A stretch of 11,422 nt of DNA, taken from a virus. The notes under the pieces were generated by a model. The model saw only the letters and a list, made by a program, of their open reading frames with translations. It did no database searches and was not told where the DNA came from. The stretch is from UHGV virus genome UHGV-2155131, one strand, 5' to 3'. A program made the translations under genes and the position numbers. Positions 1,426 through 11,151 of the stretch are shown here, piece after piece; the first letter of the stretch is position 1; each line of letters begins with the position of its first letter.

Positions 1426-1490
1426 CGGGTCCTTCCTGGAATTATGGCCCGTTACGGGGCGGCGACCTCGCGGTTTTTCGCTATTTATGA
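1426..1490 (+). other. Lambda-type cos site, left copy (cosQ-like + cosN GGGCGGCGACCT at 1457..1468), plus orientation
   Basis: gttacg|gggcggcgacct|cgcgg...ttttcgctatttatga matches the lambda cohesive-end region recalled from the lambda genome left end. Forms a 65-bp inverted repeat (62/65 identical) with 1959..2023. Confidence 0.6.
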
Positions 1491-1828
1491 GATTTTTTGA
1501 GGGGGTGGTTGTTGTTTAATTGTTTGGTATATCTAATTGATAAGTAAGGTAAAAATAAAATTAATACAACAACCTTACGATGTATTTTGATGTCATTAAT
1601 GTGAAAAAATTCAATGATATCAAATGGTTTTGTAAAAACACATGGTTGTTGTATCGCGTATTTGATGGCGTAACAGAAAGTGATTTTTAACTTTACCGCT
1701 CTGTAACTACGGATTATTCCATGCTGGCACGGAGAACGGCTACGGCATGACGCCACCCAGCCTATACAGAACAGTAAAGCCGATAAATTGTTAATCACGC
1801 GCAGCAATGCGTGTGATTTTTGCACACT

Positions 1829-1958
1829 TCCGGTTAACGGGTACGATGTCCGGTTTTAGTGTCTGTTTTTTGCGCATGTCCGGTTCATAGAAAGCATGTT
1901 TTTATATTTTTCATATGGTTAACTTGCAGAGAAACCGGACATGGATCCCGGAAAATTT
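1829..1958 (-). promoter_or_regulatory. cosB-like region with TGTCCGGTT repeats (candidate small-terminase R sites) and an AT-rich IHF-like stretch
   Basis: tgtccggtt at 1850..1858 and 1879..1887, inverted copy aaccggaca at 1934..1942, related cttccggttaac at 1829..1840. Lies directly next to the right cosN, as cosB does in lambda. Confidence 0.4.
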
Positions 1959-2023
1959 TCATAAATAGTGAAAACGCGCGAGGTCGCCGCCCCGTAACGG
2001 GCCATAATTCCAGGAAGGACCCG
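1959..2023 (-). other. Lambda-type cos site, right copy (cosN at 1981..1992 on minus strand), the copy most similar to lambda cos
   Basis: Reverse complement reads acgggtccttcc...gttacg|gggcggcgacct|cgcgcgttttcactatttatgaaaattttccgg, matching lambda cosQ/cosN and the start of cosB through TATTTATGAAAATTTTCCGG. Confidence 0.7.
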
Positions 2024-2819: not shown

Positions 2820-3875
2820 TTAACCAATTTTGACGGTAACAAATTTGCGAATATCTGCCGGAACCGGCTGCGGTGCGCTGTGCGTCTGCACGTACTCAAT
2901 CGCCGGATCGCCGTCCTCAATCCAGTTTTTCGGGTAAAACATGTTTTGCGTTGCGCCCGTTCTTACTGCGTCCTGATCCATAATCGCACCATAGGCCACC
3001 AGCCCTTTATTGTTGGTGTTGCCCAGGACAAGCAAATCAGGCTCAAGGAAATATTTTTCTGTGCCGTCGCTGTCAGTGTATTTGCCGGAATAGACGATAA
3101 GGGCAATATCGCCCAGATAGCCTTTAAAGCTCACCACTTCGCCCAGGTTTTTACAGGCCAGCTCTGCGGCGGACTCTGAACCACGGGAAAGATCGTACAG
3201 CTCACGGAATTTTTTAAAGCTGCGTAACGTTCGCCATACCTCAGCGCCCATAATCATGACGTTTGCGGGGCAACCAGCCTGATCGGCGTATAGTTCGATA
3301 TCATAGATTGGATCGTGGGTTTCTTTGTCCTGCTCTGACCATTTTTTCCCGTCGGCCTGCTCTATGATGTTTTTTTCCGGTATCTTCCAGTCGATTTCAT
3401 AGCGCTCTATGCCTTCGCCTTCAATGATGTTTTTTCCGGTCGTTACCGCATTTACCGCCAGCCATTCCACGCGCGCTTTTATGGCGTTTATCTGGCGGCG
3501 CATATTGCCAGTAATCAGGCGCATACGGCGATAGGTAGGGTCGTTAAGCTGTGCCGGATCTTCTCCAGCCATGCGCATGATGGTTTTCGTTGGATCGATT
3601 TCGTGCTTTGGCTTCATGTAGCCAGGTTTAATCGTGCTGGTTTCGTACCCTTTATCGCGCTGAACCTGGCTACCCACCATAGGCGAACAAAACGCCGACA
3701 TGGTGACTTCTTCAATGTCCAGGGTATCCAGCATGATGTTTTGCGTGCTGAATGTCGCCACGTTCGGGAAAAACAGCGTGGTAAACAGCGGACTGAATTT
3801 AAATTCCGCAATATCCCCGCGATTCAGGTACGCAAAAAGCTGGTTAGTGTTAAGTGCCATTGCTTTTACTGTCAT
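2820..3875 (-). CDS. Major capsid protein, lambda gpE family
   Basis: 351 aa. Collinear with lambda gpE across the whole length (FKFxPLF, TPGYxKPKHE, DPxYRRxRxI, WSxxDKxTxDP, YSGxY, VLGNT, YPKNW, GDPA, SAP). Start overlaps the upstream stop (TAATG). Confidence 0.9.
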   Translation of the reverse strand: MTVKAMALNTNQLFAYLNRGDIAEFKFSPLFTTLFFPNVATFSTQNIMLDTLDIEEVTMSAFCSPMVGSQVQRDKGYETSTIKPGYMKPKHEIDPTKTIMRMAGEDPAQLNDPTYRRMRLITGNMRRQINAIKARVEWLAVNAVTTGKNIIEGEGIERYEIDWKIPEKNIIEQADGKKWSEQDKETHDPIYDIELYADQAGCPANVMIMGAEVWRTLRSFKKFRELYDLSRGSESAAELACKNLGEVVSFKGYLGDIALIVYSGKYTDSDGTEKYFLEPDLLVLGNTNNKGLVAYGAIMDQDAVRTGATQNMFYPKNWIEDGDPAIEYVQTHSAPQPVPADIRKFVTVKIG

Positions 3876-4293: not shown

Positions 4294-4316
4294 AAAAAAG
4301 CCGGATTACTCCGGCT
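4294..4316 (-). terminator. Rho-independent terminator for the regulator / replication-side operon
   Basis: On the minus strand: hairpin gccgga-gtaat-ccggc then T6, 6 nt after the stop at 4322. Nearly identical to the terminator at 2025..2046. Confidence 0.55.
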
Positions 4317-4321
4317 GTTGA

Positions 4322-4594
4322 TTAGCTGTCTGGGTAATTACGCCATATTTCATCGCTTACACCATCTATACCCATTTCAGCATAAGTGCGATCTACTGCC
4401 TTTCTCAGGTCTCCGAAGTTATCCGGCGGCTCCGGTGGCTTCTGTGCCTTCCTGGAACATTCCAGCCGTCGCATCGTAACCTGATGCCGTTCCTTGTCTG
4501 TCTCCACCAGTTGCATGACTTCACCCCATCGTGCCGCCGCCCTCCGGTAAAAGCCTTTTGCCTCGAGTTCCTCCGCTATGCGGTCATGTACCAT
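4322..4594 (-). CDS. PerC-family transcriptional regulator-like protein
   Basis: Motif AEELEAKGFYRRAAARWGEVM resembles the conserved PerC/Pch core as I remember it. Preferred start is ATG 4594 with GAGGGGG upstream, directly after the SSB-tail stop. The ORF track extends to a GTG at 4714. Confidence 0.55.
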   Translation of the reverse strand: MVHDRIAEELEAKGFYRRAAARWGEVMQLVETDKERHQVTMRRLECSRKAQKPPEPPDNFGDLRKAVDRTYAEMGIDGVSDEIWRNYPDS

Positions 4595-4604
4595 CCTCAC
4601 CCCC

Positions 4605-4897
4605 TCAGAACGGAATATCATCACCGTAAGGGTCATCGCCTCCCGCTGGTGGCTGATTACCCTGTGTGCCTGTGGTCTTGCGTCTGTTCCCGCCAGGACG
4701 TGCCGCACGGGCACTGATTACGCTGTCTGCAATAACCTGATAACCCTGCCGCGTTTCCCCGTTCTGTCCGGTCCACTGGCTGATCTGCATGGCAAAGATA
4801 CCGCCATACGCGCCAGCGTCATCGGTGTACCCTTGCTGGTCTGTTTTACCTGCGGGTCGTCCACCAGCCGCCCGTAAGCGGCTATCTGTGCTGTCAT
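4605..4897 (-). pseudogene. SSB-like gene remnant in two frames: N-terminal OB-fold fragment (4718..4897) and C-terminal fragment ending in the DDIPF acidic tip (4605..4790)
   Basis: Frame A (MTAQIAAYGRLVDDPQVKQTSKGTPMTLARMAV...) resembles the SSB N-terminus. Frame B (...QISQWTGQNGETRQGYQVIAD...GGDDPYGDDIPF) resembles the SSB beta4-5 region and C-terminal tail. The frames overlap out of phase, about 40 aa of OB fold are missing, and no slippery heptamer was seen. Confidence 0.5.
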
Positions 4898-7739: not shown

Positions 7740-7959
7740 AAATTTTCTCCCTTATTCTTTTAATGTCCTCATTAAGGATGTCTGTAACTTTTATCAGCGA
7801 GTTTTTGGCAATTATTTTTATTGTTTTAAGTTTTCTTTTGTCGTGCTCCGACTGTGATTTTCTTTCCATAATCTCCACCATGTGGGTAACATCAACGAGC
7901 GCACGTATCAGTATTTGCATTGCTTCTTCTGCTGCGTCCGGACGGGTGTTATTGCACAT
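7729..7959 (-). CDS. Small hypothetical protein (76 aa) in a low-GC segment
   Basis: Strong AGGAGG Shine-Dalgarno motif 6 nt before ATG 7959. 11-nt overlap with the downstream gene. Confidence 0.55.
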   Translation of the reverse strand: MCNNTRPDAAEEAMQILIRALVDVTHMVEIMERKSQSEHDKRKLKTIKIIAKNSLIKVTDILNEDIKRIREKICDA

Positions 7960-8155
7960 GGCACACCTCCTGACGAATACGGGCAGCGAATACCATCACG
8001 CAGCCAGCCGGGGATTGCTGGCGTGCTTCCTGTTCGCTGGTGGCCTCGATGGTAATCACGCGCGGTTGTGCCGTGCTCAGGGCGATAAAACGCCAGATGT
8101 ATTTATTCAGGTCGTGCGAGTCCCGCCCTTGCGGGTGTGTGGTATGATTTCTCAT
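7949..8155 (-). CDS. Small hypothetical protein (68 aa), probable first gene of the leftward replication operon
   Basis: Internal ATG at 8155 with GAGG 6 nt upstream. Protein-like translation (MRNHTTHPQGRDSHDLNKYIWRFIALS...). Same frame as the long 439-codon ORF. Confidence 0.4.
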   Translation of the reverse strand: MRNHTTHPQGRDSHDLNKYIWRFIALSTAQPRVITIEATSEQEARQQSPAGCVMVFAARIRQEVCHVQ

Positions 8156-9268
8156 AGCTGCCTCGATACTTTCGCTATCGTTGGTGGTTAGAAGCCCGGT
8201 TAGTGTTAGCGCACTGCCGGGTTTCGTCGTTTCTGCACCTTGCGCCAACAAGGTGTTGAACACCAATTTAAACCCAGGTGTTAAACACGTCAAGTGTTGA
8301 ACACTTATTTTTTTTCCTGCATACTGCATTTGTTTTTTATGAGGGGTACACCACATGGCGACAAAAGCAGTAAACGCAAAATCACAAACCGTTGCGGCAA
8401 GGGTTCCGCATGAAGTTATGAACAATGTTGAGGCGGTAAAAATGCCTGGCGAAAGTACGGGGCAATTTGTTACTGCGGCATTAAAACGAGAAGTTGAATA
8501 TCGCCAGCGGCGCAAGGCCAGTGAATCCGAGAAATCATTAATCACGTCATAACATGAAGAACGATGGCGATAATCATAGGAGTAAAAGATGTTAAAATTA
8601 AAAAAACATGTACCAATGATGGTTGCTTTAATTATCACAATCTTTCTCTTAATATCATGCTTTGAGAAAAATAGTCTTTGCTCAAACGATAAGGGCGATT
8701 TATTACGGCGTGCTTGCGATGTAGAGTTGAAAAAAAGTTGAGCACTACCTAACCGAGACAATGCCGTAGTTCCTGTAATCACAGGATCGCTCAGGCTTTG
8801 CCCACCAGCCGCAAATATGGCATTGTTGGCAATGCTCATGCGTTGGGGATAACGTGTAGCTTGTGTCGAGGGGCCACCGTAGCGGGTGGCCTTTGTTTTG
8901 CCCGTTATTCGGCAATTGTGGCGCTTCTCCACATGGTTGATATAATCCCACTGCTCAGATTCATTTTTTGCGCAGTAGGTTAATTGTTCACAAAGGCGCT
9001 CCGGCAACGGGGCGCTTTTTGTTTTTATTAGTTTGTAGAAACCTGACTCAGAGATAATGCTCATATTCTGATTGCCGTCAGGGGTGTAAGTTAAATTTAC
9101 TCCCTTTTTATCATCAAACATCTGCAACGCTCTGGCGTTAACAATATTGGTTTCACTCCCGCCAGTAAGGCCGGAAATAACCGGAATAATTTCGGCAAAA
9201 TTTTGCAGATTCTGTTTTTCAGGACGAACGAAGCCCCGCCCTTGTTCGGGAGAATATCCAGTATTCAT
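7949..9268 (-). CDS. Bro-N domain (antirepressor-like) protein; only the N-terminal ~175 aa (about 8745..9268) is recognisable and the 3' extent is uncertain
   Basis: DGNQNMSIISESGFYKLI...LPERL matches the Bro-N core motif (NMNIINESGLYSLI). The frame then runs stop-free for about 800 nt through low-complexity translation, antisense to the RHH gene and the operators. Confidence 0.45.
   Translation of the reverse strand: MNTGYSPEQGRGFVRPEKQNLQNFAEIIPVISGLTGGSETNIVNARALQMFDDKKGVNLTYTPDGNQNMSIISESGFYKLIKTKSAPLPERLCEQLTYCAKNESEQWDYINHVEKRHNCRITGKTKATRYGGPSTQATRYPQRMSIANNAIFAAGGQSLSDPVITGTTALSRLGSAQLFFNSTSQARRNKSPLSFEQRLFFSKHDIKRKIVIIKATIIGTCFFNFNIFYSYDYRHRSSCYDVINDFSDSLALRRWRYSTSRFNAAVTNCPVLSPGIFTASTLFITSCGTLAATVCDFAFTAFVAMWCTPHKKQMQYAGKKISVQHLTCLTPGFKLVFNTLLAQGAETTKPGSALTLTGLLTTNDSESIEAAMRNHTTHPQGRDSHDLNKYIWRFIALSTAQPRVITIEATSEQEARQQSPAGCVMVFAARIRQEVCHVQ
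8253..8304. promoter_or_regulatory. Three operator-like inverted repeats GTGTTNAACAC within divergent promoters
   Basis: Copies at 8253..8263, 8278..8288 and 8294..8304. Rightward promoter candidate: -35 TTGAAC (8297..8302) and -10 CATACT (8320..8325). Leftward candidate: -35 TTGACG (complement of 8288..8293) and -10 TAAATT (complement of 8265..8270). Confidence 0.5.
8355..8552 (+). CDS. Ribbon-helix-helix-like small DNA-binding protein (putative island repressor/regulator)
   Basis: GAGGGG Shine-Dalgarno motif 8 nt before ATG. N-terminal beta-strand with alternating hydrophobics (TVAARVPHEV) followed by two helices, as in Arc/CopG-type proteins. Diverges from the operator region. Confidence 0.5.
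   Translation: MATKAVNAKSQTVAARVPHEVMNNVEAVKMPGESTGQFVTAALKREVEYRQRRKASESEKSLITS
8589..8666 (+). CDS. Candidate 25-aa cationic/hydrophobic peptide (MLKLKKHVPMMVALIITNLSLNIML) downstream of the RHH gene
   Basis: Canonical AGGAG 6 nt upstream of ATG. Below the ORF-track size cutoff. Composition resembles small membrane peptides. Translated by hand. Confidence 0.25.
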
Positions 9269-9874: not shown

Positions 9875-11125
9875 TTATATTTCTCTGGCTATTGGCAATG
9901 TGGTTACGTTTTCATGTGTTCCCGCCAGTATCCCTAACCGCTCCGTCCACATATCCAGCGCGTCACGTTTCGCATCCAGATAACGGGAATGGTTATAGAC
10001 TCGTTGCATCCCTGGCATCTGATGACCTGTAAGCTGCTCCACGACGTGAGGATCCACGCCTAAATCGTTCAGCATCGTTGTAAAGGTGCGCCGGATGTCA
10101 TGCAGTGACCAGTGAGGGTGTTTTAGCCTCCTGTGCGCTAATCTACCGTACTGCGACACGCTTGTTTCCTGTTTCACTTCCCCCAGCAATAAGCCCGTGT
10201 GCCTGTTCTGCTCCACCAGCTGCGTGACGAACGGCAGTATTGCTTCCGGTATGGGCCGGAATATTGCCACCTTCGTTTTGCTGTGTTCTTTCGGCACGGT
10301 CCAGAGCATTTCGGTAAAATCCCACTCGCTGATCTCCGATAACCTCAGTTCTACCGTCCGGCATCCGAAAACAATCAGGAGGCGGATTAGTGCGACGTAG
10401 TAAGGGGAAAATATTTTTTTGTCCAGTGCCTGCAATAATTCGCCAAGTTCTTTGGTGCTTAAGACACGCTCGCTTATATCCGGTTTTTTCCCAACGTCCG
10501 CCACACTCATATCATCAAGAACGTTGCTGATTGCATAGCGCCGCCTCCGGCAGAACTTAAGCGCCTGTTTGCACGTCTGTAGCAAGAATCCGGCAGTAAC
10601 AGGCGTTCGCTTTGCCACCTGGTCAAAACAGGCCAGCCAGTGCCGTAGCTCGCATTTATCCAGCGGCATAGCACCAATGTGCTGTATTACGTGATTATTA
10701 AGGCGCTTTTTCAGGGCGGCATAATCCACGCGGTTTTCCTTTGCGTACGACTCAAGCCAGTAGGTGAGCGCATCGCCAACCGTTACCGGCTTTAACGCTT
10801 CCTGTACGGTGTAATTAAGCTCATGACGTGGATTTTTCCCCTCTGCCAGCCATGCGCGACACTGGGCGGCTTTTTCCCTGGCTGATTTCAGGCTCAGATC
10901 AGGATAATTTCCCAGCTTAATGCGTTCCGGTGGTGCCCCCCTTCCCGTTCCGGCCCTGTAAGTGAAATACCAGGTTAAAAGGCCACTGGTTGAATGCCTG
11001 ACGCTCAGGTTTCCACCGTCATTAAGAAAGGCTGTTTTTTGGGCGGGTGTGCCGTTGATTTTCCTCAGCTGTGTATCGCTCAGTTTGTTAAGTGCTCTGC
11101 TCATAATTTTGATTCCGGTCATCAC
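9875..11125 (-). CDS. int: P4-family tyrosine integrase
   Basis: About 410 aa. N-terminal arm-binding-like region (LSDTQLRK...GGNLSVRHSTSG...WYFTYR) and C-terminal catalytic region with an HxxRRT-like motif (LHDIRRTF). The 11125 start is GTG; ATG alternatives at 11122 and 11104. Confidence 0.9.
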   Translation of the reverse strand: MMTGIKIMSRALNKLSDTQLRKINGTPAQKTAFLNDGGNLSVRHSTSGLLTWYFTYRAGTGRGAPPERIKLGNYPDLSLKSAREKAAQCRAWLAEGKNPRHELNYTVQEALKPVTVGDALTYWLESYAKENRVDYAALKKRLNNHVIQHIGAMPLDKCELRHWLACFDQVAKRTPVTAGFLLQTCKQALKFCRRRRYAISNVLDDMSVADVGKKPDISERVLSTKELGELLQALDKKIFSPYYVALIRLLIVFGCRTVELRLSEISEWDFTEMLWTVPKEHSKTKVAIFRPIPEAILPFVTQLVEQNRHTGLLLGEVKQETSVSQYGRLAHRRLKHPHWSLHDIRRTFTTMLNDLGVDPHVVEQLTGHQMPGMQRVYNHSRYLDAKRDALDMWTERLGILAGTHENVTTLPIAREI

Positions 11126-11151
11126 AATTAACTACACCATTAACTACACCG
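11126..11151. repeat. Right copy of 26-bp direct repeat; putative attR core, immediately upstream of the integrase start
   Basis: Exact match to 147..172. P4-family integrases classically have their att core just upstream of int. Confidence 0.7.

Follow-up and report, generated by a model that had tools for sequence, protein, structure and literature searches.

An inverted pair of lambda-type cos sites with two phage-type cosB regions in a putative Rpp-less EcCICFT073-type island of Escherichia coli

Gene content of the island

The window, i.e., the whole stretch of 11,422 nt that was analysed, appeared from its sequence to be an integrated phage-inducible chromosomal island (PICI) of E. coli, about 11 kb long and of the EcCICFT073 type. 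Its left end was marked by a 26-nt direct repeat (attL, 147-172) that was identical to a second copy at 11126-11151 (attR). The two copies bounded 10,979 bp, and the second one adjoined a gene for a tyrosine integrase (9875-11125, minus strand; domains Phage_integrase and Arm-DNA-bind_3), which gave the size, the att pair and the integrase of a PICI. The alpA and primase genes of such islands were also present, namely an AlpA homologue (Phage_AlpA, E=3e-18) and a primase with the D5_N and DUF5906 domains. Related islands were integrated at clpS/cspD, yejO, phoQ and thiM. The att site of the window differed from these, and a ycfD-like reading frame abutted attR on inspection by eye.

The locus of interest, 1426-2023, was flanked by two small genes on the minus strand. 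On its left was orf93 (1111-1392; phrog_1561), the left neighbour of this cassette in all architectures of the PICI family, and on its right was the conserved neighbour orf137 (2053-2460; phrog_1999), which was interrupted by a run of undetermined bases at 2102-2198; a full-length copy was present at L001:11957-12370. Further to the right were homologues of the decoration protein gpD (2473-2808; HDPD, E=2.5e-17) and the capsid protein gpE (2820-3875; Phage_cap_E, E=2e-52), and then a gene for a PerC-family transcriptional activator that was carried as cargo (4322-4714; E=2e-44). Regulators of the PerC type have a known link to the control of virulence in pathogenic E. coli. The integrase, AlpA, primase and PerC genes and the gpE and gpD homologues were all encoded on the minus strand. 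The same gene order, in which two cos sites come after the E and D homologues, was seen in strain CFT073 at the right end of EcCICFT073.

Two opposed lambda-type cos sites

An inverted repeat of 72 nt bounded the cassette; its arms, 1426-1497 and 1952-2023, were 93% complementary and separated by 454 nt. The alignment of the arms gave 67 matches out of 72 with a perfect run of 47 nt, in agreement with the 47-bp perfect core described in an earlier note on this sequence. Each arm carried the 12-nt lambda cosN GGGCGGCGACCT, which had exactly two exact copies in the window, at 1457-1468 on the plus strand and at 1981-1992 on the minus strand. With up to one mismatch, three matches were found in the window against 0.04 expected, and three were reached in none of 200 shuffles; the third match was located within the primase gene and was probably due to chance. 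The cosQ heptamer GGGTCCT was present 30 nt upstream of cosN in both arms (1427-1433 on the left and 2016-2022 on the right). In lambda the spacing between cosQ and cosN is likewise 30 nt. Both sites had the composition of a lambda-type cos, namely the 12-nt cosN preceded at about 30 nt by a cosQ heptamer, and they were on opposite strands; the claim of the earlier note that two such sites were inverted relative to each other was borne out. The spacer between cosQ and cosN was the same in both arms of the window, and for this reason the repeat was nearly perfect. Past cosN, the left arm continued into a lambda-like stretch, and the right copy ran on into TATTTATGAAAATTTTCCGG and then into three TGTCCGGTT repeats (1933-1941, 1877-1885 and 1847-1855), as the earlier note had described.

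Such a pair of sites had been called unusual, which was an overstatement. Two inverted lambda-type cos sites are already known for the EcCICFT073 family: two cos sites were published for EcCICFT073 itself (PMC6092414, PMC6739421), and they are inverted in CFT073 too. A pair of lambda-type cos sites that face each other at a distance of about 0.5-0.7 kb is the signature of the family and not an oddity. A 114-aa open reading frame inside the cassette (1481-1825) was dismissed as a candidate gene, because it began with GTG, was annotated in no closed genome and overlapped cosB.

The two cosB regions and candidate helper phages

The cassette had been described as containing a single shared cosB. 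Instead, we found two separate cosB regions, one for each cosN, which differed in their repeats and had an rpp remnant between them. The left one (1469-1655, plus strand), which we called G-type, contained three GGTTGTTGT repeats, of which the first (1507-1515) and the third (1644-1652) were forward and the second (1566-1574) was reversed. The right one (1840-1980, minus strand), which we called R12-type, contained three TGTCCGGTT repeats; the first (1933-1941) was forward on the minus strand and the other two (1877-1885 and 1847-1855) were on the plus strand, i.e., reversed. At both sites the first repeat lay 39-40 nt past cosN, and the second, reversed one lay at 96-98 nt. This was the same geometry as that of the lambda repeats R3 and R2, which lie 41 and 102 nt past cosN. 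With three repeats and a lambda-like geometry each, the two regions can be considered lambda-type cosB regions with putative Nu1 binding. Lambda cos had in common with the window the identical 12-nt cosN, the cosQ heptamer 30 nt upstream, a first repeat near +40 and a second, reversed one near +100. Unlike in lambda, the repeats of the window were unrelated to the R sites, no Nu1 gene followed either site, and the sites were arranged head to head. No exact IHF consensus was found in either cosB, and likewise none in the lambda sequence used for comparison.

Both regions had close counterparts in phages. Over the stretch 1846-2029, the window had 92% identity with the cosQ-cosN-cosB that phages PhiR12_1 to PhiR12_5 (PV340549-PV340554) carried immediately upstream of the Nu1 gene; the island carried only the DNA sites and none of the terminase genes of these phages. 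The suggestion of the earlier note that the repeats reflect the specificity of another lambdoid terminase gained support in this way, since the PhiR12 phages carried this cosB. The left cosB was nearly identical to a prophage cosB as far as the ribosome-binding site of Nu1. The GGTTGTTGT repeats were invariant over six island loci and the spacers between the repeats diverged. The similarity between island and phage ended just past the third repeat, ahead of the ribosome-binding site and the start of Nu1. An island-specific origin of the left cosB, which a BLAST comparison with isolated phages had seemed to indicate (only the first 35 nt matched), was overturned because about 60 prophage contigs of IMG/VR had the same region ahead of Nu1.

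The contigs of IMG/VR were scanned with patterns of the cos types and then classified. The R12-type cos was found in about 95 contigs and the G-type in about 60, each followed directly by Nu1 and gpA. On this sequence evidence, both cosB types were judged to be true phage cosB regions. The N-terminal DNA-binding domain of Nu1 differed with the cosB type, and the C-terminal parts could be nearly identical. This pairing of a Nu1 domain with a cosB in prophages followed the modular logic of the classical lambda and 21 specificities. Among the isolated phages in the phage collection, the R12-type Nu1 was present only in the PhiR12 phages, and no exact G-type Nu1 was found; the closest relative of the DNA-binding domain of the latter was gp1 of phage N15 (61.5%). 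Thus N15 gp1 resembled the Nu1 that accompanied the left cosB type in prophages. Among 5426 complete E. coli genomes, 1155 had an R12-type cos with its Nu1 and 225 had the G-type, and potential helpers were in this sense common among E. coli. Of the 12 host genomes with the cassette, at least 4 also had an R12-type prophage, which was not clearly above the background of 21% and was only suggestive.

Comparison with EcCICFT073 and absence of rpp

EcCICFT073 is the prototype of the Gram-negative cos PICIs, and both of its sites, cos1 and cos2, are able to drive transfer; cos1 is the site needed with lambda and phi80, and deletion of cos2 raises the lambda-mediated transfer (PMC6092414). A heterodimer of RppA (144 aa) and the helper TerS recognises the cosB of cos1 (PMC6739421). 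Fillol-Salom et al. found no phage cosB in either cos1 or cos2 (PMC6092414, PMC6739421). The prototype resembled the window in having orf93, two inverted lambda-type cos sites, orf137, and the gpD and gpE homologues. Its cosN sites were located at L002:2559 (plus strand) and 3298 (minus strand), where they flanked rppA. According to the published deletion primers, cos1 adjoined orf137 directly upstream of rppA, and cos2 adjoined orf93 and had the TGTCCGGTT repeats. Our alternative assignment, in which the site with the TGTCCGGTT repeats was the Rpp-dependent cos1, was ruled out by these primers, which showed it to be cos2. Positions 1758-2023 of the window were 96% identical to cos2 of EcCICFT073. 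There were also differences. CFT073 had rppA between the sites and an essential cos1 with an Rpp-dependent cosB, whereas the window had neither. Moreover, the R12-type cosB was on the orf137 side in the window but on the orf93 side in CFT073, and the orf93 side of the window was occupied by the G-type cosB.

The absence of rpp was nearly complete. A tblastn search of the window with RppA matched only a remnant of its 3' end at 1696-1761 on the minus strand (22 codons, 73% identical to residues 123-144 of RppA), and the rest of the gene was absent. A cosB of the cos1 type, with CACCACCAC, was not found in the window. The combination of Rpp with a cos1-type cosB that characterised EcCICFT073-type PICIs was therefore lacking. 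Among solved structures, RppA of CFT073 and its homologue from L007 both matched the structure of RppC (6HLK) with E values of about 1e-31. As candidates for a hidden Rpp, orf137 gave no match when solved structures were searched at E up to 1, and orf93 had only matches at the level of chance (best E=0.61).

Cassette architectures and inversion

The content between orf93 and orf137 could be arranged into several architectures, described here from the orf93 side, with rightward or leftward indicating how each cos site or gene was oriented. In type A, represented by CFT073, a rightward R12-type cos was followed by a leftward rppA and a leftward cos1. Type B (L004 and L007) differed in that the rightward site was of the G-type. 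In type C, found in the window and in nine closed genomes, a rightward G-type cos faced a leftward R12-type cos, and in type C', found in three closed genomes, a rightward R12-type cos faced a leftward G-type cos. Type D (L005 and L075) had a rightward G-type cos, a leftward truncated rpp and a leftward R12-type cos. Finally, in type E (L217 and L218) two further cosB types flanked a full-length N15-like terS. From this comparison, the inverted cos pair was the constant element, and the part between the arms seemed to be a variable specificity cassette. Types C and C' accounted for 9 and 3 of the 5426 complete E. coli genomes, respectively. The junction on the orf137 side that was common to the window and type E was present at 99% identity or more in 363 complete genomes, a number that counted the junction sequence and not the architecture. 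The interior of the cassette was 97-100% identical across islands that had flanks of 87-100% identity and occupied at least four att sites, which marked the cassette as both conserved and mobile.

The loci of type E (L217:1575-2600 from E. coli 2014C-3097 and L218:1575-2600 from OkiPb01685) encoded a TerS of 180 aa between their inverted cos sites. Their cosB repeats were CAGATCCGTTCT-like in one type and GGTGGTGGTGG/ACACCAACC in the other.

Types C and C' were inversion isomers. In L010, L013, L024 and L032 the counterpart of 1426-2023 was inverted relative to both flanks at about 98.6% identity, and the closed genomes with this inversion were CP075697, AP045179 and CP172217. The orientation of the cassette did not track the sequence lineage of its interior. 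Namely, a 'gamma' interior, about 97% identical to the others, was present as type C in L213 and L216 and as type C' in L212. The interiors of L212 and L213 were 100% identical and in opposite orientation, and both were located in one strain, E. coli GF4 (CP172217), in its phoQ and yejO islands. In addition, the interior of L010 (type C') was 100% identical to those of L031 and L215 (type C), with a right flank of 99.9% identity. Since the same interior variant was found in both orientations, at least two independent inversions must have taken place; a third independent inversion was probable, with only two SNPs pointing to it. Thus, the proposal of the earlier note that the sites reflected a palindromic rearrangement was correct insofar as the cassette had inverted repeatedly in evolution, and in no other sense.

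In most relatives, the spacers on the cosQ side stayed with the flanks and the polymorphisms after cosN went with cosB, which placed the exchange in 25 bp around cosN. An exchange within these 25 bp fits cutting by terminase at both cosN followed by religation. However, an exchange strictly at cosN did not hold for all loci, since the cosQ spacers were swapped or homogenised in the window, L217 and L218; for this reason gene conversion along the arms was concluded to occur as well.

Predicted packaging function and alternative explanations

The window combined the anatomy described above with homology of both sites to phage cos regions and the absence of an intact rpp, and the cassette occurred in nature in both orientations. 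Our main interpretation was that 1426-2023 is a cassette for Rpp-independent packaging by two classes of helper phage in opposite directions, to which we assigned a probability of roughly two in three. As regards cleavage, the identity of the helpers, the direction of packaging and the mechanism of inversion, we infer the following course from the sequences. After induction and replication of the island, the terminase of a G-type helper would bind the left cosB, nick cosN at 1457-1468 and package rightwards. For an R12-type helper, the terminase would bind the right cosB, nick cosN at 1981-1992 and package leftwards. Packaging in either direction, which the earlier note had brought up as a possibility, would be a natural consequence of two opposed cos sites. 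The opposed site would not terminate packaging, as its cosQ would be on the wrong side, and packaging would continue until it reached a further cosQ-cosN of the same orientation in the concatemer. Four copies of the island would amount to 43.9 kb, about 91% of the length of lambda, i.e., a head-full-compatible multimer. The packaging of EcCICFT073 runs to a head-full-compatible multimer (PMC6092414). In this way, two helper classes might be exploited without any specificity protein of the island. As each arm of the inverted repeat is centred on cosN, the interior 0.5 kb could flip. This might take place through homologous exchange between one arm and the other, or terminase might cut both cosN and the fragment, with its two identical cohesive ends, be religated.

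The nearby run of 97 undetermined bases raised the question of whether the duplicated cos was an artefact of assembly or scaffolding. This run (2102-2198) began 79 nt from the right arm, which agreed with the gap of about 80 bp given in the earlier note. However, it was located within orf137 and stood in place of 103 nt in the relatives, so that it can be regarded as a gap or mask with no relation to the cos sites. Positions 1100-2100 were present as one colinear piece at 99.1-99.3% identity in the closed E. coli genomes CP166713, CP054353 and LR134079, and for this reason the run did not explain the duplication. The structure was colinear in all 12 of the closed genomes that had it, and several independent contigs of IMG/VR showed it as well; an artefact was already refuted by the closed genomes and had a negligible probability. 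A more serious alternative was that only one site works and that the other is a relic, left behind when recombination with another island or with a helper phage replaced the cos1-rpp module; the double structure would have no function of its own. The rpp remnant at 1696-1761 indicated that a deletion or replacement had happened, the type D intermediates retained a truncated rpp beside an R12-type cos, the variant was rare, and CFT073 requires only cos1 with lambda and phi80. On the other hand, all three repeats were intact in both cosB regions, which matched phages closely up to the Nu1 boundary, and the interior was 97-100% identical where the flanks ranged over 87-100% across several att sites. 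The higher conservation of the interior argued for function or selection over decay, and we considered a functionless double structure unlikely, although the rarity of the variant (9 and 3 of 5426) would also fit a form that is degenerate or does not persist for long.

It was also conceivable that the opposed sites serve mainly for interference, as decoys that waste the helper terminase (e.g., by futile cuts 0.5 kb apart) and replace Rpp. The known interference factor of the family, Rpp, was indeed missing, and a cognate cosB would be offered to common prophage types. Against this, plasmids that carry cos are transduced by lambda and do not block it, and we regarded a predominant role as decoys as improbable; such a role would in any case not exclude one in packaging. 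For the preferred interpretation, packaging by two helper classes, the second site may also have a price, since a second cos can be costly with a non-cognate helper, as was the case for cos2 of CFT073 with lambda as helper, since its deletion raised the lambda-mediated transfer.

In a broader and much more speculative view, which we considered doubtful, the cassette would be a plug-and-play module for helper range, and terminase would act as a site-specific invertase or shuffler of packaging specificity. The interior might then hold any pair chosen from phage cosB regions and from Rpp or TerS together with their respective cosB. A cut at the opposed cosN would free a fragment that could be religated either way or be swapped between islands and phages.

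The strategy of carrying the packaging site of a helper without a terminase subunit is shared with P4 (with P2), SaPIbov5 and the PICI 11capE. The nearest published remark concerned 11capE, which has 258 bp in common with the cos of its helper (bioRxiv 10.1101/2022.07.18.500453). Unlike these elements, the window had two sites that were opposed, of putatively different specificity and placed on an invertible cassette. In the searchable literature we found neither the Rpp-less form with two phage-type cosB of different specificity, nor the correspondence of 'cos2' with a terminase type that is common among prophages, nor the recurrent inversion of the cassette. If our main interpretation is true, then islands of the EcCICFT073 family are not bound to Rpp for packaging and some of them collect the cos sites of several helper classes. 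A wider set of prophages would in that case spread the island and its cargo, here the gene of a PerC-family regulator. Moreover, cos2 of EcCICFT073 can be reinterpreted, since it was published as unlike any phage cosB and yet matched a prophage terminase type that about one in five E. coli genomes carried. The recurrent inversion also offers a natural system for comparing terminase cuts with homologous recombination in the reshuffling of packaging signals. Current models are refined by these results, and none is overturned.

Other features of the island

The protein encoded by orf137 had a weak match to the C-terminal end of the head-maturation-protease family phrog_53 (E=7e-10) and was labelled 'head-tail connector' in some genomes. 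Since homologues of gpD and gpE were encoded upstream of it, orf137 may represent a remnant of a Nu3-like scaffold. A GC-rich hairpin with a T-run on the minus strand (2025-2046; AAAAAAGCCGGATTTCTCCGGC on the plus strand) followed the stop codon of orf137, between the block of capsid genes and the cos sites. A second hairpin (4294-4315) followed the PerC gene, also on the minus strand; the two were 95% identical with the sequence AAAAAAGCCGGATT(T/A)CTCCGGC and, read by eye, looked like terminators.

Between attL and orf93 there was a non-coding stretch of about 0.9 kb (172-1100) that was dense in short palindromes and repeats, for example ccaccaatggtgg at about 610-625, ccccaaatttggg at about 705-720 and several GTTAAC-containing repeats at 300-440. 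An Rfam scan of the whole window matched no family, and neither the cassette nor this repeat-rich stretch corresponded to a known RNA. In relatives, a small hypothetical CDS was annotated within its counterpart. A reading frame of 439 aa at 7949-9268 on the minus strand had a weak N-terminal match to Bro-N (E=0.009), and its remainder was not protein-like; it was probably a read-through or a pseudogene. Finally, L213 (5739-5993) and L216 (5740-5994) had a gene of the ProQ/FinO family at the position of the PerC gene together with the same cos cassette.
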